The position numbers and the translations under genes are program-made. A stretch of 64,000 nucleotides of DNA from Candidatus Omnitrophota bacterium (GTDB lineage: Bacteria > Omnitrophota > Gorgyraeia > JABMRN01 > RBG-13-46-9). The stretch lies in assembly GCA_016782425.1 (NCBI GenBank), contig JADHYN010000001.1:67100-131099 (forward strand). Reading direction: 5' to 3'. Under the pieces are notes generated by a model, which did not search any database, had not been told where the DNA came from, and saw only the letters and a program-made list of their open reading frames with translations. This document shows positions 48,317 through 64,000 of this stretch, piece by piece. The number at the start of each line of letters is the position of its first letter. The stretch's first letter is position 1.

Positions 48317-48810
48317 TTCTCTTTCGCTTTTTTTTCTTCGATGCGTTTTCTGAATTCCTCTTCCGTTCCAGCAAATAACGCCCCTGTCGGGCACGCAACA
48401 ACGCAAGCATAATCGTCCCTATCCGGGCAGAGGTCGCATTTTACCGCAATGTGATTCTCAACATCTCTCACGATAGCACCAAAGGGGCATGCCATCACGC
48501 ACATCCAGCATCCGACGCATTTTTCCTTATCCTGTATTGTAGCCCCTGTCTTTTCGTCTTTCGAAAGAGCACCTGACATGCACGCCGTGATGCATGGCGC
48601 ATCCTGGCAGTGCTGGCAATGCAGTGAAATAATTATCTTGCCGGAAGATTCGGCCTTTACCCTCTTTTTGGGTAAAGGTTTTTCTTTTAAAGCGTTGTAA
48701 ATATTTTTTGATTTTGAATGTTCAACCGCGCAAGCCATTTCGCATGAGCGGCACCCGATGCATTTGGTTATATCGCAATATATTTTTATATTTTTTGTTT
48801 TTGTTTTCAT
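48313..48810 (-). CDS. cooF: CooF-type poly-[4Fe-4S] ferredoxin
   Basis: Four CxxCxxCxxxC-type clusters (CIGCRSCEMAC, CQHCQDAPC, CVGCWMCVMACP, CDLC..C). Confidence 0.85.
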   Translation of the reverse strand: MKTKTKNIKIYCDITKCIGCRSCEMACAVEHSKSKNIYNALKEKPLPKKRVKAESSGKIIISLHCQHCQDAPCITACMSGALSKDEKTGATIQDKEKCVGCWMCVMACPFGAIVRDVENHIAVKCDLCPDRDDYACVVACPTGALFAGTEEEFRKRIEEKKAKEK

Positions 48811-50738
48811 TTCTTTACTGTTGCTGTTTTTTCCTTATACATAACTTCGCCGAGTTTTAGCGCTTTGCGCTTTTTATCGATGTGCTTAATCATCATGTGC
48901 GCTGCTTTTATAGGGTCCGCTTCAAAAGCGAACTTACCGCCCATTGTATGTTCGATTTCATTCGTTATGTAATTTGTTACGTTTTCGCTTCCCATCACAG
49001 GTTGAGGCGTTCCGAACACGGTGTAGACACCGCTACCGACAAAATAAAAGCCTATCGAGATTGCTTTCTCGCTCATCCACTCGGGTGCAGCACCCGCTGC
49101 CGGTAGATCGCTTATATCTTCGCCAAGGCCACCTTCCGCTACGACCGCGGAAAGAATAAGAAGAATTCTCGAATTATCCACGCATGAGCCGACATGTAAA
49201 ACAGGCGGTATGCCGACCGCTTCGCAAACCTCGCGAAGGCCCACGCCGGCGTACTCATATGCGCTTTCGGGCGTCAATAGGCCCGCTTTGGCGCAGGCAA
49301 TAGCAGAGCATCCTGTCTGGACAACGAGAACATCGTTCCTTAAAAGCTCTTTCACCATTTCAACGTGCGCCCAGTCGTGTTTTATGTTCGGATTATTGCA
49401 GCCAACAACGCCGGCAGCCCCTCTCAAGCGACCTGAAATTATCGCGTCGTTTAAAGGTCTTACGGTAAAGCGATATTTTCCGCCTAATATCCTGAAGGCA
49501 TTTTCCGTTGTAAACCCGGCTACGAGGCCTTTTATCTCTTTGGGAATGTCAACTCTTTGTTGAACTCTATTTTTGTAGTTCTCAACTCCCTTTCGTATTA
49601 TGTTTTTTGCTATCTCAAGCGCTTTTTCTTCTTTGAATTCCACGTGTTCTACACCGGGAAATTTGCATTTCGGAGAAGTAGTGACAAGCTTTGTATGGAA
49701 ACAGTTAGCCACGCTAGAAAGCGCCGGCATTATGCACTGAACGTCAACCATCATCAGTTCCACAGAACCGGTAAGTATCGCGAGTTCCTGCTGCAGAAAA
49801 TTACCAGCCGAAGGCAGGCCGTGGCGCATGAGAATTTCATTTGCCGTGCAGCACATTCCGACAAGATTTATGCCTTTGGCTCCGTATTTTTTAGCAAGAG
49901 CCAGAAGCTCCGGGTCCTTAACCGCGTCTGTTACAACATCTGAAAGTGTCGGTTCGTGGCCATGAACAACGATATTAACGTGGTCTTTCTTAAGAGTGCC
50001 TAAATTTACAGTGGCGCGGATTGGTTCAGGAGAGCCGAACAAAATATCAGAAAGCTCTGTAGCTATCATCGATCCACCCCAGCCGTCGCCGAGCGCCGCG
50101 CGCATTCCGTGATTTATAACGTTTTTGTAATCGTTATCGACACCTATATGGGTGCGGTGCATGATTTCTACGATTTCTCGATCGATTCCGCGTGGAGCTA
50201 TGCCAAGCTTACGCCAGATTTCCTGTCTTTTTTTGGGCGCAAGCGAAAGAAGCCGTAGCTCACCGTGTTGCTGCCCAAATTCCGCAAGACATTTCTCTCC
50301 GAGTTCCTTGCCTATTTTTTCCGTGCTTTTTCCTTTTGTATCTATCCCGTAAACTTGAGCCGTTCTTTTAAGTTTTTCCGTGCCCTTTAGATGATAATCA
50401 TGCGCTTCGCCGTCTGCGGCCAGAAGAAGCGCATGCGCTATATCCCTTCCGTGATCCGAATGCGCCGCAGCGCCTGATGCAATCATTCTTACAAGGTTTC
50501 GCGCTACAATTGTGTCTTTTGAGGCTCCACAGATACCTGTTTGCGGGCCATCCCCGAACGGGTCTATCCTGCACGGGCCCATGTTGCAGATTTTACAGCA
50601 TATTCCGAGCTCGCCGAAACCGCACTGTGGTTGCATGGCGTCGTAACGGTCCCATACAATTTCGATGTTTTCTTTCTCGGCTTTTTGTATCATTTTTTGG
50701 CTGGCAGGGTCGTATGAGCGCTTCTCGTGTCGCTTCAT
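48807..50738 (-). CDS. cooS: Anaerobic Ni-Fe carbon monoxide dehydrogenase catalytic subunit
   Basis: N-terminal CGFGELGICCKICNMGPCRI, with internal GHEP.. and C-cluster Cys context, 643 aa. Confidence 0.92.
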   Translation of the reverse strand: MKRHEKRSYDPASQKMIQKAEKENIEIVWDRYDAMQPQCGFGELGICCKICNMGPCRIDPFGDGPQTGICGASKDTIVARNLVRMIASGAAAHSDHGRDIAHALLLAADGEAHDYHLKGTEKLKRTAQVYGIDTKGKSTEKIGKELGEKCLAEFGQQHGELRLLSLAPKKRQEIWRKLGIAPRGIDREIVEIMHRTHIGVDNDYKNVINHGMRAALGDGWGGSMIATELSDILFGSPEPIRATVNLGTLKKDHVNIVVHGHEPTLSDVVTDAVKDPELLALAKKYGAKGINLVGMCCTANEILMRHGLPSAGNFLQQELAILTGSVELMMVDVQCIMPALSSVANCFHTKLVTTSPKCKFPGVEHVEFKEEKALEIAKNIIRKGVENYKNRVQQRVDIPKEIKGLVAGFTTENAFRILGGKYRFTVRPLNDAIISGRLRGAAGVVGCNNPNIKHDWAHVEMVKELLRNDVLVVQTGCSAIACAKAGLLTPESAYEYAGVGLREVCEAVGIPPVLHVGSCVDNSRILLILSAVVAEGGLGEDISDLPAAGAAPEWMSEKAISIGFYFVGSGVYTVFGTPQPVMGSENVTNYITNEIEHTMGGKFAFEADPIKAAHMMIKHIDKKRKALKLGEVMYKEKTATVKK

Positions 50739-51094: not shown

Positions 51095-51326
51095 TTTATT
51101 CTAGTTATCGCCTTAAGGGCGCCCACTGTGCAGCCTTCAAAAAATGGACTATTAGGCTTCCGAGGCGCGCCTGCCGAGCGGCGAACTTTTGCGCCGAATT
51201 CGTATTGTTTACACCCTCGCCAGCAACCTTTTGGTATTCTTATAGCAATAGATGGGGTGAGCAGCGAGGTAGGCGCGGTTCGGAAGCTTATACGCACAAA
51301 ACGCAGTGTTCCGCTTTTTGCTTTAA

Positions 51327-54300
51327 TTAAGCTGACTGGAGAGTGCGCAAAATACCAAGATATTCTTTCTCGAGTTCAGGGGTCAGTGGGCCTACGGGGC
51401 GTAGGATATAAACTCTAAAGACAAGGCCGCTTTGCCTCATGTGAACCGCTACATTTAAGGCTTCGGCAAATGAATATGTAGAGTGCTTGTATAAACCCAC
51501 CAGAACCACAGGAACCTTAAGACTCGCTAAATTCTGCGGGTGTCCTCCAGGCCCTTTGATGAGAGCAAGTACGTCCCCGGCTCCTTCGGCTTTCATCACT
51601 TCAAGAAGCGCTCTTGCCTCTTTGGCATAATCCGATTGGGATTTTGGATGGGCTTTTATTAATCTCGGCTTTTCTCGGATAAGTTCATCCAGTGTTTTTG
51701 TAGTTACCTTTATTTTTCGGGAAGCGCGCTCTATCATATTTCTCATTATCTTTCCGTTTTTCTCTTTTCGCGCGTAAAGAAATACTGTCCCCCCTGCCAG
51801 CAAATCATGTTTTATAAGAACATCTTTAACCGTTTTTTCGAAGTCCACTACGGCAACTTCTTCTAACAGATCGTCTGCGTAAATCGCAATGCTCTGGCCC
51901 TTTACATCGTCCTCGCCTAAAATCTCGTCCGCTTCCTTAGCCCGCTTATTATATTCTTCCAGATTCTCACGACGTAATATTTCATTGAAAATGATGAATT
52001 CTTTTTCCTCGTCTAAATCAGTTTTGGCCGCAAGCACTTCCTGCTTTCCGAGCAATATCCTTAATCTCGCAAAATCGATCGAGTGCGGAATGCCTTGCGA
52101 ACGTTGGAGACGGGCATATAACTTATCAACCGCTTTCTGTATTTCACCAAGCCGCATTTCTCCAACAGCTTTTTCTCCGGGCCGCCTGGTTCCCGAGGAC
52201 ATCTTTGTTGGTAATGAATATTTTTCGGTTTCCTCCCCATCAACTCGCAAGTCTTTCCTGATCTTGCTTCTTAAGTTTTCCACAAGCACGTCCAGTCTTT
52301 CGTCAGTTATTGATAATCTTTCAAGTATTCTCGTTTTATGCGTGTCCTGCCCTGCCTCGGATAGTACAGCTTCTAATTGTTGCGTCATTTCTTCTCTGTC
52401 AGCCACGTAACGGCTCCTTATCGTCTCATAGCCCCTGCGAAAACCGCGTAAATAGTTTTCCATGTTATCTATGAAAGTTTGCCTGTCATGAGGAAGGACC
52501 CAGCCCGTTAAAGAATACATAGTCCTGGAAGCCTCGTAGAAATCCTCTTCTGGCGATTTCTCAAGATAGCGCCTGGTAAGCAGGTTCTCTCTGTCTATAT
52601 TTACAATTGCCCTTTTTTTAATATCCAGCAATTCTTCTTCGGAATATCTTTTTATCTTTTTGATATTTATTACAAGATTATGCCATCTATCGCACATTCC
52701 AAGGACATGTGCCTCGGCCATGGCAGCGCCCAAAGAAAAGAAAAACTTTTCCATAAATTCTTCGTTCGCGGAATGCGTACCCAACTCACTTAGAAAATCA
52801 ACCATGTCCACGCCGCGTATTTCGCGTATATAGACGTACCGCTTTCCCTCTTCCACCCAAACATGAACACCTCTTATGGCGTCAATTAACCTGTTTCCCG
52901 TAATGTGCGAAATATTGTCAAAATCGCCGCTTATCTCTTTGTCCTTTATTACCGTCCTCATCGGAAATCCATGTTCATCTATGATTACCGCGAAATACGG
53001 CATAGTCATAGCCATGTCGCATATATATCTGGAAATAGCCATCCTGCCGCTTTTTCTCCTTAACATTTTTGATCCGGGAAAATCTTTCATTATATGTTCT
53101 GAAAGTTGTCCTGCGCTACCTTCCGGAACGTCGGTAAATATCGTTCTGTGCGAAGCGGTTGTTCTTTGAACCGTAGCTCCTTCAAGGAAAACTAATTCTT
53201 TCATATCGTCAAAAATTCCTCCTACGGAATCCCTGCCCGGCAATTCAGAAATTGCTTCCTTCTGAAACCGCGTTAAAAGTTCTCTTTTTTTCATCCGGTC
53301 AAGTTTTCTAATGCACTCTAAATCGGCTTCCCCTCCGATGTCGCCCGTTTCTTTCCGCTTAACAAGCGCCAGCGCGACTTCGGCAAGCGCCTCTTTTCTC
53401 GGAATGTCGTCTCTGTCCCGCAATTTTTTAAAGAATGACCCTATTGAGGTCAGTTCTTCCGGCGAGGCGCTTTCTATGCGCTCTGTTAATGGCCTTATCG
53501 CATCTACCAGCAGCTCCTGGCTAACGCCTATTTGGTCATTATTCTCATTCGCCTTAAAAGCCTCAATAGCCCGCCGCGCTTCTTCAATCATACCTTCAAT
53601 GGGTTGAGAAATAGCCACAGAACCAATTCCAAAACCTGGTTTAGAGATGGGTTTTTGTTCATAGCCATGAACATCTGCAAAAAGTATTCCTTCTTCATCT
53701 TTAACATCAACGCGTGATGAGGGAACATCTTCTTCGGAAAAAATAAATGATGATGGGGGCCTATGTAAACCCTTGGGCCCGCCAAAATTTACGAAAACAA
53801 CCGGTTTCTTACATCGTATTGCAAGTTTCTTCGGCCATGCAACCGCTTCGGCCATATCAGTCCCTGCAGGTAACAGGATCACGTCTACTTCCTCAAGTAA
53901 TGAATACAAAGCTGTATCCAAGGATCTTTTAATTACATTTTTGCATTCGCTGCATATAAAAAGCGCTGCTTTGGTGCCGTTGATTACAAAGAATCGATTT
54001 TGCATGTTTCTCTCAAATTTATGGAATACGAGCGGCTCCTGTTTTGGCCGCAATATAGTATATGTGCAATTATATGACCCGGCCTTCTCTTGCTGATCCT
54101 TTCTGGTAGTTTCGATAAAATAACCAGCCGCAATACCAGTAGTTTCAACAAGTTTCTGGAGCGTTGAAATCCTATTTTCAGGATCAACATTGATGGAATT
54201 AGGGTCATCCATTGTTTCAGGGAAAATTACAATATCGGGCTTCCATGTTCCCCAGGTATTCATGACTTTAAGAATTTCAGCTATTCGATTTGTGTTATTA

Positions 54301-57300
54301 TGAAAATTATTTTCGGAAAGCTGAACGCCGCAAACCTTAAATGCATCATTTGCAGGTTGACGACGCGCGTACACGGATAATTCTAAATGTTCTGTTTTAA
54401 GACAAATAGGGACAGCTCTATTTTCCACGCCGATCTGCGACGCCGCCTCCGGACCTCGCAAGTCCGTAGAGGTCGGCTTTTGGCCATTGGTTATATCTTC
54501 CGCGCGCACAGCGCTGCCTGCGGCGCCGCGGTCTATCCCGCCCATGAGTATATTTTCCTCGGATGCGCTGTCGAGCCTTAGCAATTCCTCAATGGAAAGC
54601 GAACTATCGCTTATAAGTGACCCGCGAAGCGCGGAACATTCTTCGGAAAAACCGTCACTCTCATCAAGCTCTCCCTCCAAAAGCTTGCCTACCTTATCAT
54701 AGAAGCCGGTTATAATATCTTTCTGGTTAAACGCAAGTTGGTCAGACAGGATCTGCAGTAAATCTCTTGCATTACTTATATCGCTCGCAAAGTCAGATTC
54801 ATCCTTAGAACTTTCAATAGTGTCATAGTCAAAAACACTTAAAAGATTTGTGTTGTAGGGGCTTAAGACACTTCCATCTATGTTATGCATTTTACTGCGT
54901 TTGCCGCTTTTGAGAAGCGTATTCATGTTATGTGCAAGGTAAGAGGCCAGCCTGAGCCTGAAAGCCGCGGCTTTCAGTATGAATTCTACGGCTTTGTCCT
55001 TATCGAGCGACCGTCCGGAGGCATCTTCAACTACTATTTTCTGACCGTCTTTTCGTATTGTTAACCCGTAGTATCCAAAAAACAGCCTTAAGGTCTCTGG
55101 TTTATCCATTGAAAGCTCACTTGTTCTCGTGGAGACGGCTGTTTTGTAAAACATAACATACATGTCCTGGTCCATGCCAAGCATCTCCAGGGCCTTTTCG
55201 CGCTCGAGAAGGATTGTCTCTCCCATGTCGGCAAGAAGCGCGTTCCTTGTATTTTTACTGGCCATTGCTCGGCGCCTATCCGTTATTGCCGCGGGTATGG
55301 CCAGCGGCCTGAAGCCTGTTTCCGGGGAGAAGAAGATGTCTTCTTTGACGTTGAGTATCTCGGTAAGCGCTTTTATGTCGGGACGGGTCCTCATGAGCTT
55401 GCGGAACGCTCTGTGAAGGGATGAGGTTAATGCGGGGTCTATCTCGCTCTTTATAACTCCGCCGTCAAATCTTCCTATTTCGTTAACATCATAAAAAATA
55501 TGAAGCCCCGGAATAGTGCTAAATGCGTAAAAATTGCCCGAGCCCTTAAAGACAAAAGACGGTTCGCTATCTGTGTGACGCGATCTTCCGTGCGTTTCGG
55601 AATTAACGCCTGAGACCATGGGAATTAAAAATAGGTTATTTATCGCTTTGAGGCCGGTCGCATCCTTAAGGCTCCTGCCAAGAATAGCATTCCTTTTAAA
55701 TACAGTATTGCCTCTTACGTCTTTTACCTTTCCTACAGGAATTATGATTCCTTTTTTTACGGCCTCCTGCACGCTTTTCATGTCCGAATCTCTGCCCGGT
55801 ATCATGATAGCGGGAACGAGGATGGTATTGGGAATGCTTGAGGCAAAAATGACCTTCTTTTTAAGAAGCCCGATGAGTTTTATTCTCTCTTTGTTTTCTG
55901 TGTTTTTTAATTCATCTTCAAGCTCTCTTATAAGGGATTCGCGTTTTTCGGGCGTTGCTTTTTTTCCGGCGCGAAGTGAAAAAATAATTCTGAGGAGATC
56001 AAATCTCTTCTCCTCGCATAGCCTTATGAGGGAAGATAACTTTTTAGGTTCCAGTTCACGGGATATGAATTCCAGATGTTTAATGTTTTCCGATATAAGT
56101 CGTGCGTTATCTCCTATTGTTTCTACATAACCAGCTAAATCTAGAGCGTTTATGTCAGTATGAGAAAAGTTTAATCCTGTAGCTTTGGCAAGCTCGATAA
56201 GAGCGAGGGATTTTTCGTAAGAGTCTTCTATTTCATCTATTGCGCCTCGGGCGAGTTTAAGGTCCTTACGGGTTTTAGTTGCTTTGGCAAGTTCTATAAG
56301 GGCGAGGGATTTGTAGTGAGGACGCTGTATTTTATCTATTGCGCCTCGGGCGAGTTTAAGGTCCTTACGGGTTTTAGCTGCTTTGGCAAACTCTAAAAGG
56401 GCGAGGGATTTTTCGTAAGGATACGGTATTTCATTCATTGCGCGGCGTATTTTTTTATTCAAGGCGATTTCCTCAAGCACATTAGAAGCTTCTTCTAAAT
56501 ATGCCTTGCGTACGGGTTCTTCGTCATCCACAGGTAATGTCGCCATTGCAAGCACCCCGCCTCTTATAAACTTCTCAAGATTATACAATCCATGAATAAG
56601 CATAATAAGCGGAAGAGCATATGAAGGAATAAAGAATATAAAAGCAAGATATGCTGTTCGGATTAAGAGGACTATTCTTAGTATATCTCTTTTGTCCTTG
56701 TAATTAGCGGATTTTTTTTCGATAATGCCATTGTTTACTTTTAAAACATACCAGAAGTGCACGGCAAAGAAGAGAAAGAAACTTACACAGGAATTCGCGA
56801 TTACATGATTGAATAATGGCGCTTCCTCGATGATAATACCGCTAAAGATATATTCTTCTATCATGCTTGCTAAGAAAACAAAAATTCCTATTGAAAATTT
56901 CGAAACGTTTTTAGCTTGTAACCAACTAATCAGTTTCCACCAAAGGCCTGGAACCATGCCCAGCGGAACTTCGTGTCGGCCGGAAGTAAGGCTACTATCG
57001 CCTATCTCTTCCTCGCGCGCGGAGGTAGCCGTTTCAGGCAGGCTCCATTCTGATATTTTCGGCGGGACCTCTTCATTCAGTTTCTCGCTTACCGCTATAG
57101 AACGCGTAAATGGTTTCCTTGAATGATTCACAACTGCTCTTGAGAAAGTAGAACCACCAAATATTTCATATTCAGAATACGTTTCTTGTTCGGAACGTAA
57201 ATATTTACGCTTAAGGTGTTTTGCTATTTTTACTATCATATGAGCAAAATCAATGATATAGCTTAAAACTATAACGCCGACAACAATAACACCCGCAATA

Positions 57301-60300
57301 ATCGCAAACAATGAATCCGCGCGATAAAGCATCTTAAAACCGCGCCCAAAAACGCAACCTGTGACCAAACTGGTAAGAAATGCTAAAATTACTGTTTTTC
57401 TAATTGCTTTCTTATATTTTCCAAAATCCGGTTTACCGGAACTAGATTGTAGTGCCGTTACGGCCGCAGAAGGCGTGGCTTTCACCGCACCATCCTCCGA
57501 AACTACTTTCGGAACTGGCTTGCGCCCGGTATGGGAATCAAGAAATCCTATATCTTTACCTTCGGTTCCTTCGGTACTGAATGGTTCTATAGGATGTCCA
57601 AAACTTAAAAGAGTAGCTTCTTGCCTGCTATCACCCGCCTCTTTTTCGCACGCGGGGGTAAGCAAGGCTTCTGGTTCATCCAATCTACGAACTTCTTCGG
57701 ACTTTACCGCTGATAACATTTTTCCTATGTCAAGAACTTGTATTGTGGTTTCCGGTTTGCGTTGATATATTTCAAAAAGGTTTTCTATTTTTGTAATGTC
57801 GAATTCATCTTCAACGTCAAGCCAATTTTCGCTTGAAAAGAATACTACATATTTCGCGCCCGGCTTAAGCCCTGTAGGGCTTAGTAATTTTTCTTTTAAT
57901 CTTTGCTTAAAATCTTCCATGCTTTCCTGGCTTAACAGACTCCCTGGCCAGTGAAAAATAATGTCAAACTCTGACAGATCTCGACCAAAATAATCGCCTT
58001 GTTTAAAATGGACGTTCTGAGAGCCGAGATTTTCTAATCCCCGGCTACCTGCAATTTCTCTATAGAAAATAAGTTTCGCTTTTCTGGCTAGTTGGGCATT
58101 TAATTCATTGCCATAAGTATCCAACCCCAAAGCAGCCATTGCGGCCATCAGCCTGCCGTCACCAAAGCCCATATCATAAAATTTAGCGCAAGACGGTACA
58201 TTTAATTTTTTGCACAGCCGCCAAAACGCTTCGATCCCAGCCATCGATATAGGCAAATATTCGCATGTAGGCTCATTGACGCCATGTGTGCTATATAAAC
58301 TCGAGACATTATCTATGATTTGCATTTCTTCTTCGGTTAAGTCCACATCAAGCATGATTTCATCTGCTTCTGAACCGCGTAGGCCCGAAGCGCTCAAATT
58401 CTCCTTCCCTTCGTCGCCGCGCGAAACTGTATTCGCTGCAAAATCAACCTGTGCTCTACCTTGATATTTTTTTGATAACGTGGCGAATAAGAGCTTTCTC
58501 ACTCCGAATGGTATGAATGGAATGTTGGCTAAAATAAGATTGAACCAGTGCGGGGTAGATTGACGTATGGCTAATAATTCATGTAGAATATGTCTGTGAG
58601 TTGCGCCGTTAAGAAGTTTTGCATAGATGTTTACAGGAGCATCCAGACGCATTTTTCTTCCTGTCTCTACTCCCGCATACAGCCAGAACGCGGGCCATTT
58701 TTGATGGCCTGAAACAATAAAGTTTATACCTAGCTTTTCAATATCCAGGTGCTCTTTTGTCAGTCTTTCATATAGTTCTAATGCCTTTTTCACGATTGGC
58801 GCATCATTATAAGCTACTGATGGTTTCATCCTGAATCTTCGTTCTAAGCTACCCAGCTCTTCTTTCACATCTTTTTCAGTCGCTCCCAGTAAGTTGCGCT
58901 CGGCAGGCTTCATCTCTCCGTCAAAATCCGCTTCACCCTCTATTTCTACGAGCCACTTGGTGCGACAGATATCAGAAATCACATAAAGACTTACAGAATC
59001 AGTGAAAATTTTTCTGCATATATCTTTCACACGCTCCGGATCATGAGTGCGTTTGACATAAACCCTTATCTGATGCACATCTTTAAAAGCCGGTTTTGCG
59101 GTTATCCTATGTTGCGCAAGATTGGGTTGTGACATCAAGACCGCGATATTGTCAATCGTAACCCACGTTTGGGCCTCGATAGCGGTTTTAGCGTAAATAG
59201 CTGCCTGCCGGCCAGGCTCACCAAAGTTTTTCATTTCAACCTGAAAGCCGCGTGCTCTTAATGCATCCGGGCCTCCGGCAACTAAGGCTATGTTCTTTAT
59301 CTTAACCCATGTGGGCACATAGTTATCATCGGGATATAAAACATCTTCTCCCTTTACAGAAGCTGTTCCGGAAATATACAGCTTAACCTTTTTACTCGCT
59401 TTTCTTACAACCGCCTTTGCCCTTTCGAATTTAGGGGATGGCTTTGATCCTTTTTCGTCTCCGACAAGAACGCGCTGGCTGTAATTATAAGGGGCTATCT
59501 GTTCGGGGTTTTCAACAGGCACTATCGAAATAGCGGTTTCATCTGTCTTAGCGGCTATGAATTCAATGGTAACGCCCCCGGCATCAATACCTATACCTGT
59601 TGCAGAGGCATAACCGTTTTTGAAAGCTGACGCTGCGTAATATTTTGCCCGGATACCGCAGAATATAGTGTAATTATTCGTCTTGCCATCGCCTTCCACG
59701 GGTATTTCTACGATGTCCTCTACATAATTCCATTGCCGCACGACGTCGTCAAAGCTTAATCCCTCTCTATCCAGAATAGCTTTCATGATAGAGAAGACTT
59801 CTTCAGATTGGGCGTGCCTACCTTGAATTTCTTCGCCGGCTGTTATACCGGTTACATGTAAAAATTTTGAGCCCCCTATTTTTATAACCGCGTATCGCAC
59901 GCTGCGGAAAACCTTATGCTCAATTTTTAAATCACGGCCTTTCAAAGGTAAAAGCACTGTTACTTCCATGCTAACATTCGAGCCGTCAACAGATGGCTGG
60001 GCTACGAAGCTTGCGGGCATAGAATTGTTTTCGTAGAAACGATCTATGCAAGCTGTGAGGTTTTCTTTTTTAGCAAAATAATCGTGCCCTTTCGCTGCTT
60101 TTATAAAGACTGTTTGTTTTATTATGGCACCTTTTTCAGCGCCCAATTTAGCCAGATTCTTTCGCAGCGTAGACAGGCAATTCTTGAGTTGCTCCTCGTG
60201 GCTGCCGGCTTCTTCAGGAATAATAGTAAACTTGATTTCCCGGTAAACTCCGTTATCGATCTCTTTGTAAGAGGTTTTGCCGGGCCGGTCAGCGGGCCTT

Positions 60301-61913
60301 TCATCTAAGCCGGGCTCCGGAACCGCCTCCGGGCTTCGCGGGTTCGAAGCAGCGGCCTCAACTGCATTTATCAAATCAGGCATTCGAGAAACATAGTGCA
60401 AAGTAATATCCGGAGTTTCTTGCCGGGAGGTATCTTCATTAAGATGCCCGTCTTTAAACAACTTGTATGTTAATCCATTGTTTTCCAGTGTTTTCAAAAT
60501 TGTTTTGCGAAAATCATAAGGGTCGTGCTCTTCAGGGTATGTAAATCTGCCTGCGGGTAAATAAAAATGTTTTTGTAGTTTTTCTCCACTCTTAATTCTC
60601 TGTGCGATTCTTCTGATTATGCAATCAATTGCCAGATCCCAGCAAACTATTACGCTACCACCAAGCATTACTATATGAGATTCATCTTCAGGGCCCAGTA
60701 TTTCGTCTACCTGCACAGCGCTTATTTCTCCTATAGGAGATGGGAAGACAGTAACGCCTTCAGGAAGTTGTTTGTTTTTAAACTCATTTATCTCGGGAGA
60801 GTCCATTAATAGATATTTTCGTAATATTTTTCCATTTTTAACAATACCGGCTTTTTTTAGCCTATTCTCAACATGATCGGCATCGGATAAAAAAGAGACA
60901 CTGTGCACTTCTACTATAACGGGTAGGACATTTTCAACTTTGGGAGTTGGGATGTCTGTTCCCCCTGCGCGCATAGCGCCGGGCTCCGGAACCGCCTCTG
61001 GATTATGTAGGTCCGTAGCAGTATCTTTCTCTCTACTATCGACTGACGACTGACGACCATCGACTGATTCCGCCCGGTCAAACACGAAGCCGTTAGCGTA
61101 AGCAGTTTCTATTATGTCTTTACGAAGTTCGGGATTATGGAATTCCTGTCCGAAGTATTGCCTACCCTTGCGTGCAAGGTAAAATTCAGAATGTCCCGCG
61201 ATAATAGGATTGATAGCTTTGTAAAAGCGCCATTCGTTCAGCGTAAAATCCCGGCGCCGTGAAACAAGGTTCTTTCGCACGAGAAACTCGAGCTCGAAGC
61301 CCCGCGCTATTATATCGTTCAGCACGAGTTCGCTGTGAAGATCAGGCTCAGTATGAAGTTTTCTTTTATCCTCCGGAAAAAGCTCAAGATAAGATTTAAG
61401 AATGGCCCTTTTGGAAAAAACTTCTTGTCGTATCTTCTCGTGTCTGTCTTTTTCTCTCTTTCTTTTGGCTTCATCCGGGTCAATGCTATGCGCCATCATC
61501 TGCATGAGGGCTTCTATCTCCTCATGGATAACAGCGCGGATAACCTTTATGCGATCCTGTTTGATTTTTTCTGAAACAAGAATTTTTCCGTCATTCTCAA
61601 GAAGCAGCGCATCGGGCCAGTCACGCTGTTCCATTATGCGCCTGTAGAGTTCTTTTTGTTCAGGGTTATCGGAATAGACAAGGCGGCGGGACTTTTCAAG
61701 CGCCATTATCCAGCCTTCGCCTCGTACAGCAGGATTAAGAACTCCCGGACTTGGCGCAAGCGTCCCTCGACTCTGCTCGGGACTCCCGTTGGTCGCGCGT
61801 GCCTCTTCTATGCCGGGAATGCTGTTTAAAAACACAAGGCATGCCAGGCACATAGCTACAAATCTTATACTTATATGACTCTTTAGCTTAAACATATAGA
61901 TAAAATATAGCAT
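51327..61913 (-). CDS. Giant 3528-aa multidomain protein of unknown function
   Basis: The reading frame is uninterrupted for 10.6 kb. There is an N-terminal signal/TM segment. Motif-level domain calls are listed in the findings: RidA-fold FkbO-like, SAM-MTase DMGFGDG, TM block with CPBP-like EExxxS/FxxxH/HxxxN, 33-aa repeats, CN-hydrolase E-K-C, and a DRWHN kinase-like loop. Confidence 0.8.
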   Translation of the reverse strand: MLYFIYMFKLKSHISIRFVAMCLACLVFLNSIPGIEEARATNGSPEQSRGTLAPSPGVLNPAVRGEGWIMALEKSRRLVYSDNPEQKELYRRIMEQRDWPDALLLENDGKILVSEKIKQDRIKVIRAVIHEEIEALMQMMAHSIDPDEAKRKREKDRHEKIRQEVFSKRAILKSYLELFPEDKRKLHTEPDLHSELVLNDIIARGFELEFLVRKNLVSRRRDFTLNEWRFYKAINPIIAGHSEFYLARKGRQYFGQEFHNPELRKDIIETAYANGFVFDRAESVDGRQSSVDSREKDTATDLHNPEAVPEPGAMRAGGTDIPTPKVENVLPVIVEVHSVSFLSDADHVENRLKKAGIVKNGKILRKYLLMDSPEINEFKNKQLPEGVTVFPSPIGEISAVQVDEILGPEDESHIVMLGGSVIVCWDLAIDCIIRRIAQRIKSGEKLQKHFYLPAGRFTYPEEHDPYDFRKTILKTLENNGLTYKLFKDGHLNEDTSRQETPDITLHYVSRMPDLINAVEAAASNPRSPEAVPEPGLDERPADRPGKTSYKEIDNGVYREIKFTIIPEEAGSHEEQLKNCLSTLRKNLAKLGAEKGAIIKQTVFIKAAKGHDYFAKKENLTACIDRFYENNSMPASFVAQPSVDGSNVSMEVTVLLPLKGRDLKIEHKVFRSVRYAVIKIGGSKFLHVTGITAGEEIQGRHAQSEEVFSIMKAILDREGLSFDDVVRQWNYVEDIVEIPVEGDGKTNNYTIFCGIRAKYYAASAFKNGYASATGIGIDAGGVTIEFIAAKTDETAISIVPVENPEQIAPYNYSQRVLVGDEKGSKPSPKFERAKAVVRKASKKVKLYISGTASVKGEDVLYPDDNYVPTWVKIKNIALVAGGPDALRARGFQVEMKNFGEPGRQAAIYAKTAIEAQTWVTIDNIAVLMSQPNLAQHRITAKPAFKDVHQIRVYVKRTHDPERVKDICRKIFTDSVSLYVISDICRTKWLVEIEGEADFDGEMKPAERNLLGATEKDVKEELGSLERRFRMKPSVAYNDAPIVKKALELYERLTKEHLDIEKLGINFIVSGHQKWPAFWLYAGVETGRKMRLDAPVNIYAKLLNGATHRHILHELLAIRQSTPHWFNLILANIPFIPFGVRKLLFATLSKKYQGRAQVDFAANTVSRGDEGKENLSASGLRGSEADEIMLDVDLTEEEMQIIDNVSSLYSTHGVNEPTCEYLPISMAGIEAFWRLCKKLNVPSCAKFYDMGFGDGRLMAAMAALGLDTYGNELNAQLARKAKLIFYREIAGSRGLENLGSQNVHFKQGDYFGRDLSEFDIIFHWPGSLLSQESMEDFKQRLKEKLLSPTGLKPGAKYVVFFSSENWLDVEDEFDITKIENLFEIYQRKPETTIQVLDIGKMLSAVKSEEVRRLDEPEALLTPACEKEAGDSRQEATLLSFGHPIEPFSTEGTEGKDIGFLDSHTGRKPVPKVVSEDGAVKATPSAAVTALQSSSGKPDFGKYKKAIRKTVILAFLTSLVTGCVFGRGFKMLYRADSLFAIIAGVIVVGVIVLSYIIDFAHMIVKIAKHLKRKYLRSEQETYSEYEIFGGSTFSRAVVNHSRKPFTRSIAVSEKLNEEVPPKISEWSLPETATSAREEEIGDSSLTSGRHEVPLGMVPGLWWKLISWLQAKNVSKFSIGIFVFLASMIEEYIFSGIIIEEAPLFNHVIANSCVSFFLFFAVHFWYVLKVNNGIIEKKSANYKDKRDILRIVLLIRTAYLAFIFFIPSYALPLIMLIHGLYNLEKFIRGGVLAMATLPVDDEEPVRKAYLEEASNVLEEIALNKKIRRAMNEIPYPYEKSLALLEFAKAAKTRKDLKLARGAIDKIQRPHYKSLALIELAKATKTRKDLKLARGAIDEIEDSYEKSLALIELAKATGLNFSHTDINALDLAGYVETIGDNARLISENIKHLEFISRELEPKKLSSLIRLCEEKRFDLLRIIFSLRAGKKATPEKRESLIRELEDELKNTENKERIKLIGLLKKKVIFASSIPNTILVPAIMIPGRDSDMKSVQEAVKKGIIIPVGKVKDVRGNTVFKRNAILGRSLKDATGLKAINNLFLIPMVSGVNSETHGRSRHTDSEPSFVFKGSGNFYAFSTIPGLHIFYDVNEIGRFDGGVIKSEIDPALTSSLHRAFRKLMRTRPDIKALTEILNVKEDIFFSPETGFRPLAIPAAITDRRRAMASKNTRNALLADMGETILLEREKALEMLGMDQDMYVMFYKTAVSTRTSELSMDKPETLRLFFGYYGLTIRKDGQKIVVEDASGRSLDKDKAVEFILKAAAFRLRLASYLAHNMNTLLKSGKRSKMHNIDGSVLSPYNTNLLSVFDYDTIESSKDESDFASDISNARDLLQILSDQLAFNQKDIITGFYDKVGKLLEGELDESDGFSEECSALRGSLISDSSLSIEELLRLDSASEENILMGGIDRGAAGSAVRAEDITNGQKPTSTDLRGPEAASQIGVENRAVPICLKTEHLELSVYARRQPANDAFKVCGVQLSENNFHNNTNRIAEILKVMNTWGTWKPDIVIFPETMDDPNSINVDPENRISTLQKLVETTGIAAGYFIETTRKDQQEKAGSYNCTYTILRPKQEPLVFHKFERNMQNRFFVINGTKAALFICSECKNVIKRSLDTALYSLLEEVDVILLPAGTDMAEAVAWPKKLAIRCKKPVVFVNFGGPKGLHRPPSSFIFSEEDVPSSRVDVKDEEGILFADVHGYEQKPISKPGFGIGSVAISQPIEGMIEEARRAIEAFKANENNDQIGVSQELLVDAIRPLTERIESASPEELTSIGSFFKKLRDRDDIPRKEALAEVALALVKRKETGDIGGEADLECIRKLDRMKKRELLTRFQKEAISELPGRDSVGGIFDDMKELVFLEGATVQRTTASHRTIFTDVPEGSAGQLSEHIMKDFPGSKMLRRKSGRMAISRYICDMAMTMPYFAVIIDEHGFPMRTVIKDKEISGDFDNISHITGNRLIDAIRGVHVWVEEGKRYVYIREIRGVDMVDFLSELGTHSANEEFMEKFFFSLGAAMAEAHVLGMCDRWHNLVINIKKIKRYSEEELLDIKKRAIVNIDRENLLTRRYLEKSPEEDFYEASRTMYSLTGWVLPHDRQTFIDNMENYLRGFRRGYETIRSRYVADREEMTQQLEAVLSEAGQDTHKTRILERLSITDERLDVLVENLRSKIRKDLRVDGEETEKYSLPTKMSSGTRRPGEKAVGEMRLGEIQKAVDKLYARLQRSQGIPHSIDFARLRILLGKQEVLAAKTDLDEEKEFIIFNEILRRENLEEYNKRAKEADEILGEDDVKGQSIAIYADDLLEEVAVVDFEKTVKDVLIKHDLLAGGTVFLYARKEKNGKIMRNMIERASRKIKVTTKTLDELIREKPRLIKAHPKSQSDYAKEARALLEVMKAEGAGDVLALIKGPGGHPQNLASLKVPVVLVGLYKHSTYSFAEALNVAVHMRQSGLVFRVYILRPVGPLTPELEKEYLGILRTLQSA
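56181..56438. repeat. 99-nt tandem repeat (2 full units plus 1 partial) inside the giant ORF
   Basis: 56241-56278 and 56340-56377 are identical (38 nt). Each unit encodes a 33-aa helical repeat, ..YEKSLALIELAKATKTRKDLKLARGAIDEI.. Confidence 0.85.
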
Positions 61914-61961
61914 ATAATCACATGCGAAGTGTCACAGAAAGGTAAAAATTTTATCGCTTAA

Positions 61962-62111
61962 CCGTTAAGGGCGCCCCTTGTGGGCGCCCGTACAATAATG
62001 ATTATTTGTTTCGTGGGAGGCGATTTTATGGTCGCCGGGTAGGTGGCCGTAGGGGCGACCTTTATGGTCGCCCTATCGTTATTTCCTTAAGAGCGCCCAC
62101 AAGGGGTGTCC
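61962..62111. repeat. REP/BIME-like cluster of GC-rich hairpins downstream of folD
   Basis: Hairpins include GGGCGACCTTTATGGTCGCCC and GCGCCCACAAGGGGTG. About 100 nt are roughly 90% identical by eye to 63181-63288, inside the RAYT gene. Confidence 0.75.
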
Positions 62112-62954
62112 CTATGATAATTTAAACGCAGTTACGACATTCCGCATGAGCATGGTGACGGTGAGCGGCCCTACTCCGCCAGGGACAGGGGTTATGAATG
62201 AGGCTCTGTCTTTTGCAGGCTCAAATTCCACGTCGCCTACGATTCTTTCACCGACGCGGTTGATGCCTACGTCGATAACAATAGCGCCCGGTTTTATCCA
62301 CTCGCCCTTTATGAGGCCGGCTTTACCGACCGCGACCACGAGTATCTCGGCCCGTTTTACGTGCTCGGGCAAAACACCGCGCTCTCCGGTGGCAATGTGG
62401 CAGACTGTAGTAGTGACAAAGCTATTTAAAAGAAGAAGCGCCAGGGGTTTGCCTACGATTTCAGAGTGGCCGACGATGACTGCTTCCTTGCCATAAAGAT
62501 TCTCACGCGTTGATTCTATAAGCTCGAAGGCAGCCTGCGCCGTGCATGGCGCTACGGATGCGTCCCCGAGAAGAACGTGGCCCAGATTCTCCGGGTGCAT
62601 TCCCTCGGCGTCTTTCGCGGGAGAAATAGACCTAATGATCAGCCTATGGTCGATCCCTTTCGGAAGCGGAAGCTGGACGATAATACCTGATACGCTATTA
62701 TCTTTATTCAAGGATTTTATCTCGGTAACAAGAGTGTCCTGTTTAGTATCCGCGCCTAACGTTTTCAGACCATACTCTATTCCGAGAGCCTCGGCGGTTT
62801 TTTTCTGTGCCCTTATATAAACAGCTGAAGAGGTATTCTCCCCTACCTGGATGCTTACAAGTTTTGGCTTTTCCTTAAAAGACGCGATCTTTTTCTTCAA
62901 CGCTTCTTTTATGCTTGCCGCTATCGCCTTACCTTCTAATAACTGTGCGCTCAT
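62112..62954 (-). CDS. folD: Bifunctional methylene-THF dehydrogenase/methenyl-THF cyclohydrolase
   Basis: LLEGKAIA.., VQLPLP and GHSEIVGKPL motifs. The start at 62954 has GGAGGAG 6 nt upstream. Confidence 0.9.
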   Translation of the reverse strand: MSAQLLEGKAIAASIKEALKKKIASFKEKPKLVSIQVGENTSSAVYIRAQKKTAEALGIEYGLKTLGADTKQDTLVTEIKSLNKDNSVSGIIVQLPLPKGIDHRLIIRSISPAKDAEGMHPENLGHVLLGDASVAPCTAQAAFELIESTRENLYGKEAVIVGHSEIVGKPLALLLLNSFVTTTVCHIATGERGVLPEHVKRAEILVVAVGKAGLIKGEWIKPGAIVIDVGINRVGERIVGDVEFEPAKDRASFITPVPGGVGPLTVTMLMRNVVTAFKLS

Positions 62955-63531
62955 AATTTTCTCCTCCATTGGTAAAATATTCATCGCGCTCCCATTGGCC
63001 AGGATTATTTATTATGTATTCCCGAATACGGTTTGAATCTTGCTCATCACGGATTACATGTTCATAAAAATTTCGTTGCCAGAGGTGTTTACCGAATCGT
63101 GGCCAATTATTGATTTTTACGTTACGGATGTATTCATTGGTTGTAATGGATTTAAACGCACCAATAATTTCGCCCAACGTAGGGGCGACCTTTATGGTCG
63201 CCGGGGAGGTGGCCGTATGGGCGACCTTTATGGTCGCCCTATCGTTTATTCCGTTAAGGGCACCCACAAGGGGTGCCCCTACGATAACGATGATTCCGTG
63301 TAAATGGTTTGGCATGACGATGGATTCATCTACCTCAACATTTGGAAAATGTTCCGGTAATTTCCGCCACCATTCGTCAACCATATATCCCTCGTTATTT
63401 AATATCATTTTGCCGTCACTCACATCGCCAAATATGCATTTACGGTCGTTTACACATACGGTCACATAATACATGCCATCTTGTGTATAATCGTAATTTT
63501 TTAATCTTATCGATTTTCGGTTGCCTGACAT
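62929..63531 (-). CDS. REP-associated tyrosine transposase (RAYT, IS200/IS605-like Y1 HUH family)
   Basis: HUH motif MPNHLHGII and a C-terminal WQRNFYEHVIRDE..YIINNP Tyr region. Its start overlaps the metF stop (TAATG), and its tail overlaps the folD RBS and start. Confidence 0.8.
   Translation of the reverse strand: MSGNRKSIRLKNYDYTQDGMYYVTVCVNDRKCIFGDVSDGKMILNNEGYMVDEWWRKLPEHFPNVEVDESIVMPNHLHGIIVIVGAPLVGALNGINDRATIKVAHTATSPATIKVAPTLGEIIGAFKSITTNEYIRNVKINNWPRFGKHLWQRNFYEHVIRDEQDSNRIREYIINNPGQWERDEYFTNGGENYERTVIRR
63179..63290. repeat. REP cluster copy embedded in frame in the RAYT gene
   Basis: It encodes VGAPLVGALNGINDRATIKVAHTATSPATIKVAPT, between the HUH and Tyr motifs. Confidence 0.75.
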
Positions 63532-64000
63532 TATCGATTAACCTTGCCCAACACTTCCCTTGTAGGCTCTACTTTATTTAACGCGTAGAAATGGAGCCCC
63601 GGCGCGCCCCTTTTAAGAAGGTCATTGCATTGTTCGACAGCGAATTTTACACCGGCTTTATACATCTCTTCTTTATTACCGTCAAGCGGCTTGAAAATAT
63701 CGTGCACCTTCTGCGGAATAGTAGCGCCACAGGTCTTGCAGAAGCGGAGAAGCACTTGATAGTCCGTTATAGTGATAACGCCCGGCAAGATTCTCACATT
63801 GACGCCGACTTTTTTGGCCCTGTCTAAATATTCGGAATAATCTTTGTTGTCAAAGAAAAGCTGCGTTATGACAAATTCTCCGCCTGCGTCTATTTTAATC
63901 TTAAGGTATTTCGTATCCGTTGCCTTATCAGGGCAGTTCGTATGCCCTTCGGGAAATCCGGCCACGCCAATTGAGAAGAAATCGCCGAATGTTTTTATAA
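63531..64000 (-). CDS. metF: Methylenetetrahydrofolate reductase, 5' end outside the window
   Basis: GFPEGH.., ITQLFFD and LPGV..I motifs. The ORF stays open to position 64000. Confidence 0.85.
   Translation of the reverse strand, partial: IKTFGDFFSIGVAGFPEGHTNCPDKATDTKYLKIKIDAGGEFVITQLFFDNKDYSEYLDRAKKVGVNVRILPGVITITDYQVLLRFCKTCGATIPQKVHDIFKPLDGNKEEMYKAGVKFAVEQCNDLLKRGAPGLHFYALNKVEPTREVLGKVNR

Follow-up and report, generated by a model that had tools for sequence, protein, structure and literature searches.

A putative REP-associated tyrosine transposase gene with in-frame REP hairpins, located between metF and folD in Candidatus Omnitrophota

In the classification of TnpA-Y1 proteins by Quentin, Siguier, Chandler, and Fichant (2018, BMC Genomics 19:475; PMC6006769), repetitive extragenic palindromes (REPs) inserted inside the tnpA-REP genes themselves were described as "a unique feature" of subclass 2.4. 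Insertions in that subclass are in frame, are located between the HuH motif and the tyrosine in the beta3/alphaC loop, where they were modelled as peripheral, and differ in length and sequence between members. The REPs of subclass 2.4 have a GT[AG]G foot with three basal G-C pairs or a double-foot form, the median distance between HuH and Y is 88 amino acids (aa) compared to 58 to 67 in most subclasses, alphaB has an 8-aa insertion at its end, and the proteins, which lack a C-terminal extension, are spread over many phyla, including Cyanobacteria and Bacteroidetes (PMC6006769). Here, we describe an open reading frame (ORF) between metF and folD that carries REP hairpins in its coding sequence. 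It is located in a stretch of 64,000 nucleotides (here called the window) from a Candidatus Omnitrophota bacterium (GenBank assembly GCA_016782425.1, contig JADHYN010000001.1, positions 67,100 to 131,099 of the forward strand). Coordinates refer to the window, and locus numbers with the prefix L are our own designations for homologous or related loci.

The ORF very probably represents a REP-associated tyrosine transposase (RAYT, or TnpA-REP) of the subclass 2.4 group, with its own locus-specific REPs in frame in the loop between the HUH strand and alphaC, present as a lineage-specific insertion between the metF stop codon and the folD ribosome-binding site (RBS). The trait itself is not peculiar to this locus and is a published hallmark of TnpA-REP subclass 2.4.

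Family assignment and predicted fold of the protein

The translated ORF matched the NCBIfam profile REP_Tyr_transpos (NF047646) with an E value of 1.6e-15, in two pieces; deletion of residues 84 to 118 produced a single continuous match covering profile positions 6 to 131 of 146. In a structural model built with AlphaFold (AF2) from 40 homologs, the core was predicted with high confidence (predicted local distance difference test [pLDDT] > 90), compared to a pLDDT of < 50 for residues 87 to 114, which were placed between the HUH strand (residues 76 to 83) and a long helix (residues 119 to 141). A structure model had been proposed in a preliminary description of this DNA as a check on whether the insert disrupts the fold, and the insert fell in this low-confidence loop. 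The top 30 matches of the model in the PDB (Foldseek) were all Y1 transposases, including those of ISDra2, IS608, and IS200 as well as E. coli TnpA-REP (4ER8), which had the highest identity among them (20%). The match to 4ER8 in a sequence search of the PDB was weak (E = 0.078), and the fold search was required for this comparison.

Active-site and recognition residues were located by alignment (Table 1). The HUH motif was found where the preliminary description had placed it, and H76, H78, and Y172 were invariant in the family alignment. The segment WQRNFYEHVIR, which had been taken for the tyrosine region, aligned instead with the GTAG-recognition region of E. coli TnpA-REP, and the equivalent of the catalytic tyrosine was Y172, which aligned with E. 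coli Y115. Within the recognition segment, W151, Q152, E157, H158, and R161 aligned one to one with E. coli W94, Q95, E100, H101, and R104, the residues that bind the GTAG foot (PMC6006769), and all five were conserved. The distance between H78 and Y172 was 94 residues, or 59 after removal of the 35-aa insert. The family alignment stopped approximately 12 residues past the NNP motif and contained no conserved C-terminal extension; the extra 14 C-terminal residues of the window's protein represent read-through into the folD RBS region. A total of 2765 homologs were found at E ≤ 0.001, with lengths of 170 to 280 aa, among them cyanobacterial and Bacteroidota genes with E values of 1e-43 to 1e-55. 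A protein 100% identical to the one encoded here is annotated as a transposase in Candidatus Omnitrophota.

The features that define the HUH/Y1 superfamily (HUH motif, catalytic tyrosine, and Y1 fold) were therefore all present in the alignments and the model, and a feature associated with RAYTs, a REP family with a 5' GT[AG]G foot, was present as hairpins in the gene and after folD. Sequence comparison and modelled structure thus support the identification of the ORF as a RAYT, that is, a member of the HUH/Y1 family of single-strand-DNA endonucleases, as the preliminary description had proposed from the letters of the sequence. An IS200/IS605 insertion sequence was considered as another candidate and rejected: a single RAYT was found within the 64-kb window, and the ORF abuts metF and folD without element ends. 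The score of the protein against the NCBIfam profile transpos_IS200 was 19 to 20 bits, compared to a cutoff of 55.

In-frame REP hairpins and their copies

The inserted residues are encoded by a module of three REPs (Table 1), two in direct orientation and one inverted, with a composition resembling REPIN/BIME pairs; REP B and REP A2 form an inverted pair with their feet outward. The module is characterized by GT[AG]G feet, three basal G-C pairs, stems of 7 to 8 bp, and loops of 5 nucleotides (nt), and its predicted folding was strong (minimum free energy [MFE] z = -6.3), whereas another segment of the gene, taken as a control, had a z of -0.5. The codons of the module on the coding strand are GTA GGG GCA CCC CTT GTG GGT GCC ... 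AGG GCG ACC ATA AAG GTC GCC CCT ACG, which are translated as VGAPLVGA ... RATIKVAPT. Both of the hairpins quoted in the preliminary description were recovered; the A and B hairpin patterns were each found at 3 sites in 64 kb, with 0 expected in shuffled sequences.

Just after folD, a copy of the whole module was found in direct orientation, 1166 nt from the intragenic one and overlapping the final codons and the stop codon of folD. The two copies, judged by eye in the preliminary description to be roughly 90% identical, shared 98 identities in 111 columns (88.3%; positions 63178 to 63287 versus 62012 to 62120) with three 1-nt gaps, and the ungapped blocks were 94% identical over 62 nt and 86% identical over 42 nt; the ORF was intact, as had been stated. 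The second, partial copy adjoining it had the same flanks as intragenic REP B (63258 to 63278), also in direct orientation, with its loop flipped (CTTGT versus ACAAG) and with one stem pair compensatorily changed from A-T to G-C. This combination of loop flip and stem-pair change at 61969 to 61989 is the pattern expected of template switching or strand exchange within a palindrome. The presence of the whole composite after folD, together with the adjoining partial copy, indicates recent copying or gene conversion between the sites.

A further fragment had been noted at 51108 to 51126; it was real, with its limits at 51111 to 51126, and comprised only half of a hairpin. The sequence CCTTAAGGGCGCCCAC had 3 matches at ≤2 mismatches, compared to 0.03 expected. 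Neither the 64-kb window nor the adjoining 5.7 kb contained further GTAG hairpins of the module type, and no known RNA family reached its gathering score in positions 61500 to 64000. A role of the REPs as intrinsic terminators was considered and rejected, as the terminator-like matches were on the plus strand, antisense to the operon, and none were supported on the sense strand.

That the similarity between the copies arose by chance, from low complexity, or from an assembly artefact is barely credible. The GC-rich and palindromic nature of the sequence is the only point in favor of such an origin, and it is countered by the expectation of 0 matches in shuffled sequences and by the extent of the similarity, 88% over 111 columns that include nonpalindromic spacers. 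In addition, the identical RAYT protein was found with identical neighbors in four independent assemblies, so the arrangement is not an assembly artefact.

The loop was then compared across the family in a sample of 80 homologous loci from genomes of many phyla, with loop DNA set against equal-length control segments of the same genes. The position of the insert, whose conservation the preliminary description had put forward as a check, was the same loop across RAYT homologs. A perfect GT[AG]G-footed hairpin was found in the loop of 66 of the 80 genes (82%) and in 0 of 80 control segments, and the median MFE z was -3.8 for loops and -0.25 for controls. The 120 loop hairpins comprised 45 distinct stems, and double-foot forms were found in homologs such as L030, L052, L058, and L064. 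Of the GTAG feet, 58 were read in frame 0, 6 in frame 1, and none in frame 2, which creates a TAG stop; the inverted foot, CTAC, was read in all three frames.

Individual homologs contained additional arrangements. In a Chitinophagaceae homolog (L067, approximately positions 2342 to 2620), a double-foot REP encoding the peptide VGAENFLPLQ had two copies in the beta3/alphaC loop and a further one shortly before the WQRNY motif, so that this gene has two in-frame insertion sites. A 2.9-kb metagenome contig (L139) contained two RAYT genes (511 to 1068 and 2313 to 2879), each with a GTAGGGGCGACC...GGTCGCCC REP in its coding sequence.

A variable segment occupied the insert position in nearly all homologs and frequently contained peptides resembling VGAPLVGA and RA(T/G)T(R/K)(V/P)APT; in the family alignment, G85, A86, and A116 were invariant, and P117 and T118 were nearly so. 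Such shared peptides, and the few bases of beta3 codons included in the external copies, are what would be expected if the segment were ordinary conserved protein and the external copies were decayed fragments of a former RAYT gene rather than REPs. Recurrence of the segment as conserved protein sequence had been named in the preliminary description as a result that would count against it, and the peptides do recur in homologs, but they correspond to the translated foot and stem base of the REP, with GTAGGGGC translated as V-G-A and GCCCCTAC as A-P-T. Stem differences between close relatives were compensatory, in some cases synonymous (GCA...GGT in the window versus GCG...GGC in L088) and in others peptide changing (T/V in the window versus P/G in L086). 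As the stems vary compensatorily and the same element is read in several frames, the conserved unit is the DNA palindrome and not the peptide.

The distribution of the hairpins outside RAYT genes was in line with this. More than 120 JGI metagenome contigs, all from other organisms, contained hairpins with the window's exact A stem. In the 80 loci kept for analysis, no RAYT accompanied 96 of the 102 copies, which identifies a dispersed REP type rather than a gene fragment. For 106 of 111 external copies, homology did not extend past the edges of the REPs, and no other part of a RAYT gene was found after folD. An origin of the segment as ordinary protein is accordingly very improbable. REPs with the same stem were located in long stop-to-stop ORFs in 53% of cases, compared to 79% of random positions, a modest depletion in what was a crude test.

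The internal hairpins frequently matched REPs of their own locus. For 36 of 75 loci, 13-mers of the insert had further occurrences in the surrounding locus, and by this measure 18.5% of insert nucleotides were shared with the rest of the locus. The corresponding value for the remainder of the gene was 1.9%, approximately the level expected by chance. With 14-mers, matches were found in 38 of 79 loci (48%), compared to 6.5% of cross-locus pairs. In the close relatives L086 to L088, copies matching the internal REPs directly flanked the gene on both sides, as in the classical REPtron layout. In L001, L005, L009, L022, and L087, the gene interior had composite REP modules of 65 to 170 nt in common with the sequence immediately preceding the start codon, in direct orientation and with 86 to 97% identity. 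Concerted evolution of internal and flanking arrays seems to be common in the RAYT family.

By analogy with E. coli TnpA-REP, the enzyme would bind single-stranded REP hairpins, read the GTAG foot through its W, Q, E, H, and R residues, and cleave and rejoin the DNA nearby; GTAG-GGGCGACCTTTATGGTCGCCC and the B hairpin may be its single-stranded substrates. This activity, or plain recombination between copies, would spread and homogenize the REPs, and selection would retain only stop-free, in-frame versions in a tolerant loop. The encoded loop would be tolerated because it is peripheral in the model, and the array after folD would behave as other post-ORF REPs do.

A different explanation is that the intragenic array is a selected cis-element and not a tolerated passenger, either as a protected master copy that seeds or homogenizes the flanking arrays or as an autoregulatory hairpin acting through the RAYT or through mRNA structure. 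The near universality of the array (66/80 genes), its fixed position and strong frame bias (58 in frame 0 versus 6 in frame 1), and the long composites common to the interior and the immediate flank (86 to 97% identity in L001, L005, L009, L087, and the window) are consistent with such a role, as are a few external copies in which neighboring coding sequence points to copying from gene to flank. The carried sequence amounted to 9 nt of alphaC codons in L087 and, in the window, to 5 nt in one copy, with a match at 10 of 13 nt in the other; these two loci hint at gene-to-flank copying. However, only 5 of 111 external copies carried neighboring RAYT coding sequence, so a general gene-to-flank direction is not supported, and 14 of 80 genes had no canonical hairpin. 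The loop is also predicted to be disordered and peripheral, and in-frame GTAG REPs have been described in many unrelated genes (Di Nocera 2013; PMC3733652), so tolerance alone can explain persistence. Selection for a cis-element is thus unlikely, and tolerance of in-frame REPs in a subclass 2.4 RAYT is the preferred reading.

Several observations weigh against parts of this preferred reading. Against NF047646, the protein scored 57.2 bits, or 62.3 bits once the insert was deleted, in both cases below the 80-bit equivalog cutoff, and the Pfam Y1_Tnp score (20.8 bits) was just under the gathering score of 23, in the latter case because the insert splits the domain. Scores under the curated cutoffs indicate that the RAYT is a divergent relative of the E. 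coli-type RAYT and not an equivalog; the NF047646 model is probably centered on the E. coli-type subclass. The assignment to subclass 2.4 was based on shared features and not on the authors' profiles or on their exemplar (Calothrix K9PHU2). Finally, within the approximately 70 kb to which the copy number applies, as opposed to the genome, the REP family was confined to the RAYT locus, the site after folD, and one half copy.

Table 1. Coordinates of the putative RAYT gene, its motifs, the REP hairpins, and the adjoining genes in the window
Feature	Position	Strand	Description	Basis
RAYT / TnpA-REP gene (putative)	62929..63531	-	Intact ORF, 200 aa	Family profiles, AF2 model, Foldseek
HUH motif	63295..63309	-	NHLHG, residues 75-79 (H76, H78), strand 76-83	Family alignment, model
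W151-R161	63049..63081	-	WQRNFYEHVIR, equivalent of GTAG-recognition residues	Alignment to 4ER8 residues 91-121
Y172	63016..63018	-	Catalytic tyrosine equivalent, in REYIINNP	Aligns with E. coli Y115
Intragenic REP module	63178..63287		110 nt, encodes residues ~84-118 (VGAPLVGALNGINDRATIKVAHTATSPATIKVAPT)	Alignment, model, MFE
REP A1	63179..63202	+	GTAG foot + GGCGACC / TTTAT / GGTCGCC, perfect 7-bp stem	
REP A2	63215..63239	+	Foot mutated to GTAT, GGGCGACC / TTTAT / GGTCGCCC, 8 bp, three basal G-C pairs	
REP B (inverted)	63258..63282	-	GTAG + GGGCACCC / CTTGT / GGGTGCCC	
External copy of whole module	62012..62120		Just after folD; degenerate A1', intact A2 (62049-62073), degenerate B''	
Second, partial external copy	61952..62006		B-type hairpin (61969-61989) + flanks	77% over 57 columns
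Half copy	51111..51126	+	B-type REP + left flank, CCTTAAGGGCGCCCAC; spacer between giant ORF and hcp	
metF (MTHFR), 3' part	63531..64000	-	Stop TAA 63533-63531	
folD	62112..62954	-	280 aa; ATG 62954-62952, stop 62114-62112	
folD RBS	62967-62961	-	GGAGGAG	

Insertion between metF and folD

The 3' part of metF, the 200-aa ORF, and folD are co-oriented on the minus strand. The overlaps reported in the preliminary description were confirmed by coordinates: the ATG of the RAYT gene (63531 to 63529) and the TAA of metF (63533 to 63531) have base 63531 in common, giving TAATG, and the final approximately 12 RAYT codons, which end with a stop at 62931 to 62929, cover the folD RBS and the first 8 folD codons. 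The RAYT gene is probably translationally coupled to metF. On a longer contig from the same organism, the full operon comprised purH, folE, an unknown gene, fhs, an FTCD_C gene, metF, the ORF, and folD.

Empty sites were found in relatives with 79 to 90% identical FolD proteins (L210 to L213), in which metF is directly followed by folD with no RAYT. Junctions of this kind had been proposed as a comparison, and they bear out the description of the gene as wedged into the operon without breaking it. The spacer between metF and folD was 9 to 10 nt in two more distant relatives and 59 nt in the closest ones (L210 and L211); in the window, the ORF alone fills the space between the metF stop codon and the folD RBS. 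The closest RAYT homologs (L085 to L088; 65 to 69% identity) were located in unrelated contexts, and the RAYT gene is therefore a lineage-specific arrival in the metF-folD operon. The possibility that it forms a conserved part of folate operons was ruled out on the same evidence.

In the closest relatives, the spacer (967 to 1025 in L210 and 1199 to 1257 in L211) contained a solo double-foot REP, GTAGGGGAGGCTTAAGCCTCCCCTAC, of a stem type unlike that of the window's REPs. It is flanked by arms consisting of an A-run and a T-run and is located exactly at the position of the RAYT gene. Such a REP may have arrived at the junction independently, or it may have been left behind by a REPtron that was lost.

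The external module also affects the end of folD. It begins TTA TCA TAG (62112 to 62120), and its degenerate foot (ATAG) supplies the TAG stop codon of folD. The window's FolD ends in AFKLS, compared to AFKLQSRI or AFKLQHRS in the relatives, and is 3 aa shorter.

Between folD and hcp (Prismane, 48807 to 50738), the window contains an ORF of 3528 aa (51327 to 61913, minus strand) for which the only Pfam hits were to a RidA/L-PSP-like domain and an FkbO/Hyg5 chorismatase-like N-terminal domain. The giant gene is a lineage-specific insertion, as hcp comes immediately after folD in L212 and L213; it is also present in L210. REP material flanks the giant ORF on both sides (61952 to 62120 and the half copy at 51111 to 51126). 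In the folate and Wood-Ljungdahl neighborhood of one relative (L213; CP070780.1), the genes for GTP cyclohydrolase I and acetyl-CoA synthase (CdhC/ACS) each contained intein and LAGLIDADG domains (precomputed Pfam hits).

Significance and comparison with known systems

The locus is a clean and well-bounded example of a published but little-known trait, a domesticated transposase gene that contains the predicted substrate repeats of its own product. Empty-site relatives date the arrival of the RAYT gene, which is only an ORF fitted between the stop codon of one gene and the RBS of the next in an essential one-carbon operon. The survey adds numbers to the 2018 description, with hairpins in 82% of genes, 45 stem variants, avoidance of the frames that create TAG, and matching that was approximately sevenfold more frequent within loci than between them. 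The empty metF-folD sites, the solo REP in the closest relative, and the folD stop codon derived from a REP module are new local details. In annotation, recurrent peptides such as VGAPLVGA and RATxxVAPT are best regarded, in proteins of this kind, as translated REPs and not as protein motifs. If the intragenic array were a selected master copy after all, enzyme and substrate would be coinherited, and subclass 2.4 would amount to a self-contained REP "generator" and not to an enzyme that its own repeats happen to hit. The finding opens no new kind of system.

Among known systems, the TnpA proteins of IS200/IS605 elements (IS608 and ISDra2) provided the best structural matches, and they share the HUH and tyrosine chemistry on single-stranded DNA hairpins. 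Those elements are multicopy, have subterminal hairpins, and often include tnpB, whereas the RAYT gene is single copy in the window, has no insertion sequence ends, and carries a REP-encoded loop of approximately 35 aa.

The in-frame GTAG/CGTC REPs and the Rickettsia palindromic elements (PMC3733652) resemble the module in being palindromes, often dimers encoding 20 to 30 aa or more, that are tolerated, presumably in loops. The hosts described there include DNA repair genes and tRNA synthetases, and no transposase appears among the host genes in a part of the supplementary files of that work; here, the host is the presumed REP enzyme, and the site is recurrent across the family.

The E. coli TnpA-REP with its REPtron (Nunvar 2010, PMC2817692; 4ER8) shares with the window's RAYT the HUH/Y1 fold, the conserved W, Q, E, H, and R residues, REPs with a 5' GTAG, and a single-copy gene tied to its own REP family. 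It differs in sequence, with approximately 20% identity and a sequence match over the C-terminal motifs only, and in the placement of its REPs, which flank the gene with none inside. In subclass 2.2, of which the E. coli protein is a member, the stems are longer and bulged, and a C-terminal extension is present (PMC6006769).

The closest agreement was with subclass 2.4 (PMC6006769), which the window's protein resembles in the insertion site, the type of REP, the HuH-Y distance, and the lack of an extension. It differs in its host phylum, Candidatus Omnitrophota, and in that REPs do not directly adjoin the gene on either side, the matching external array being located one gene further on. The trait itself, already published, was rediscovered here in a phylum and a genomic context that PMC6006769 does not describe.

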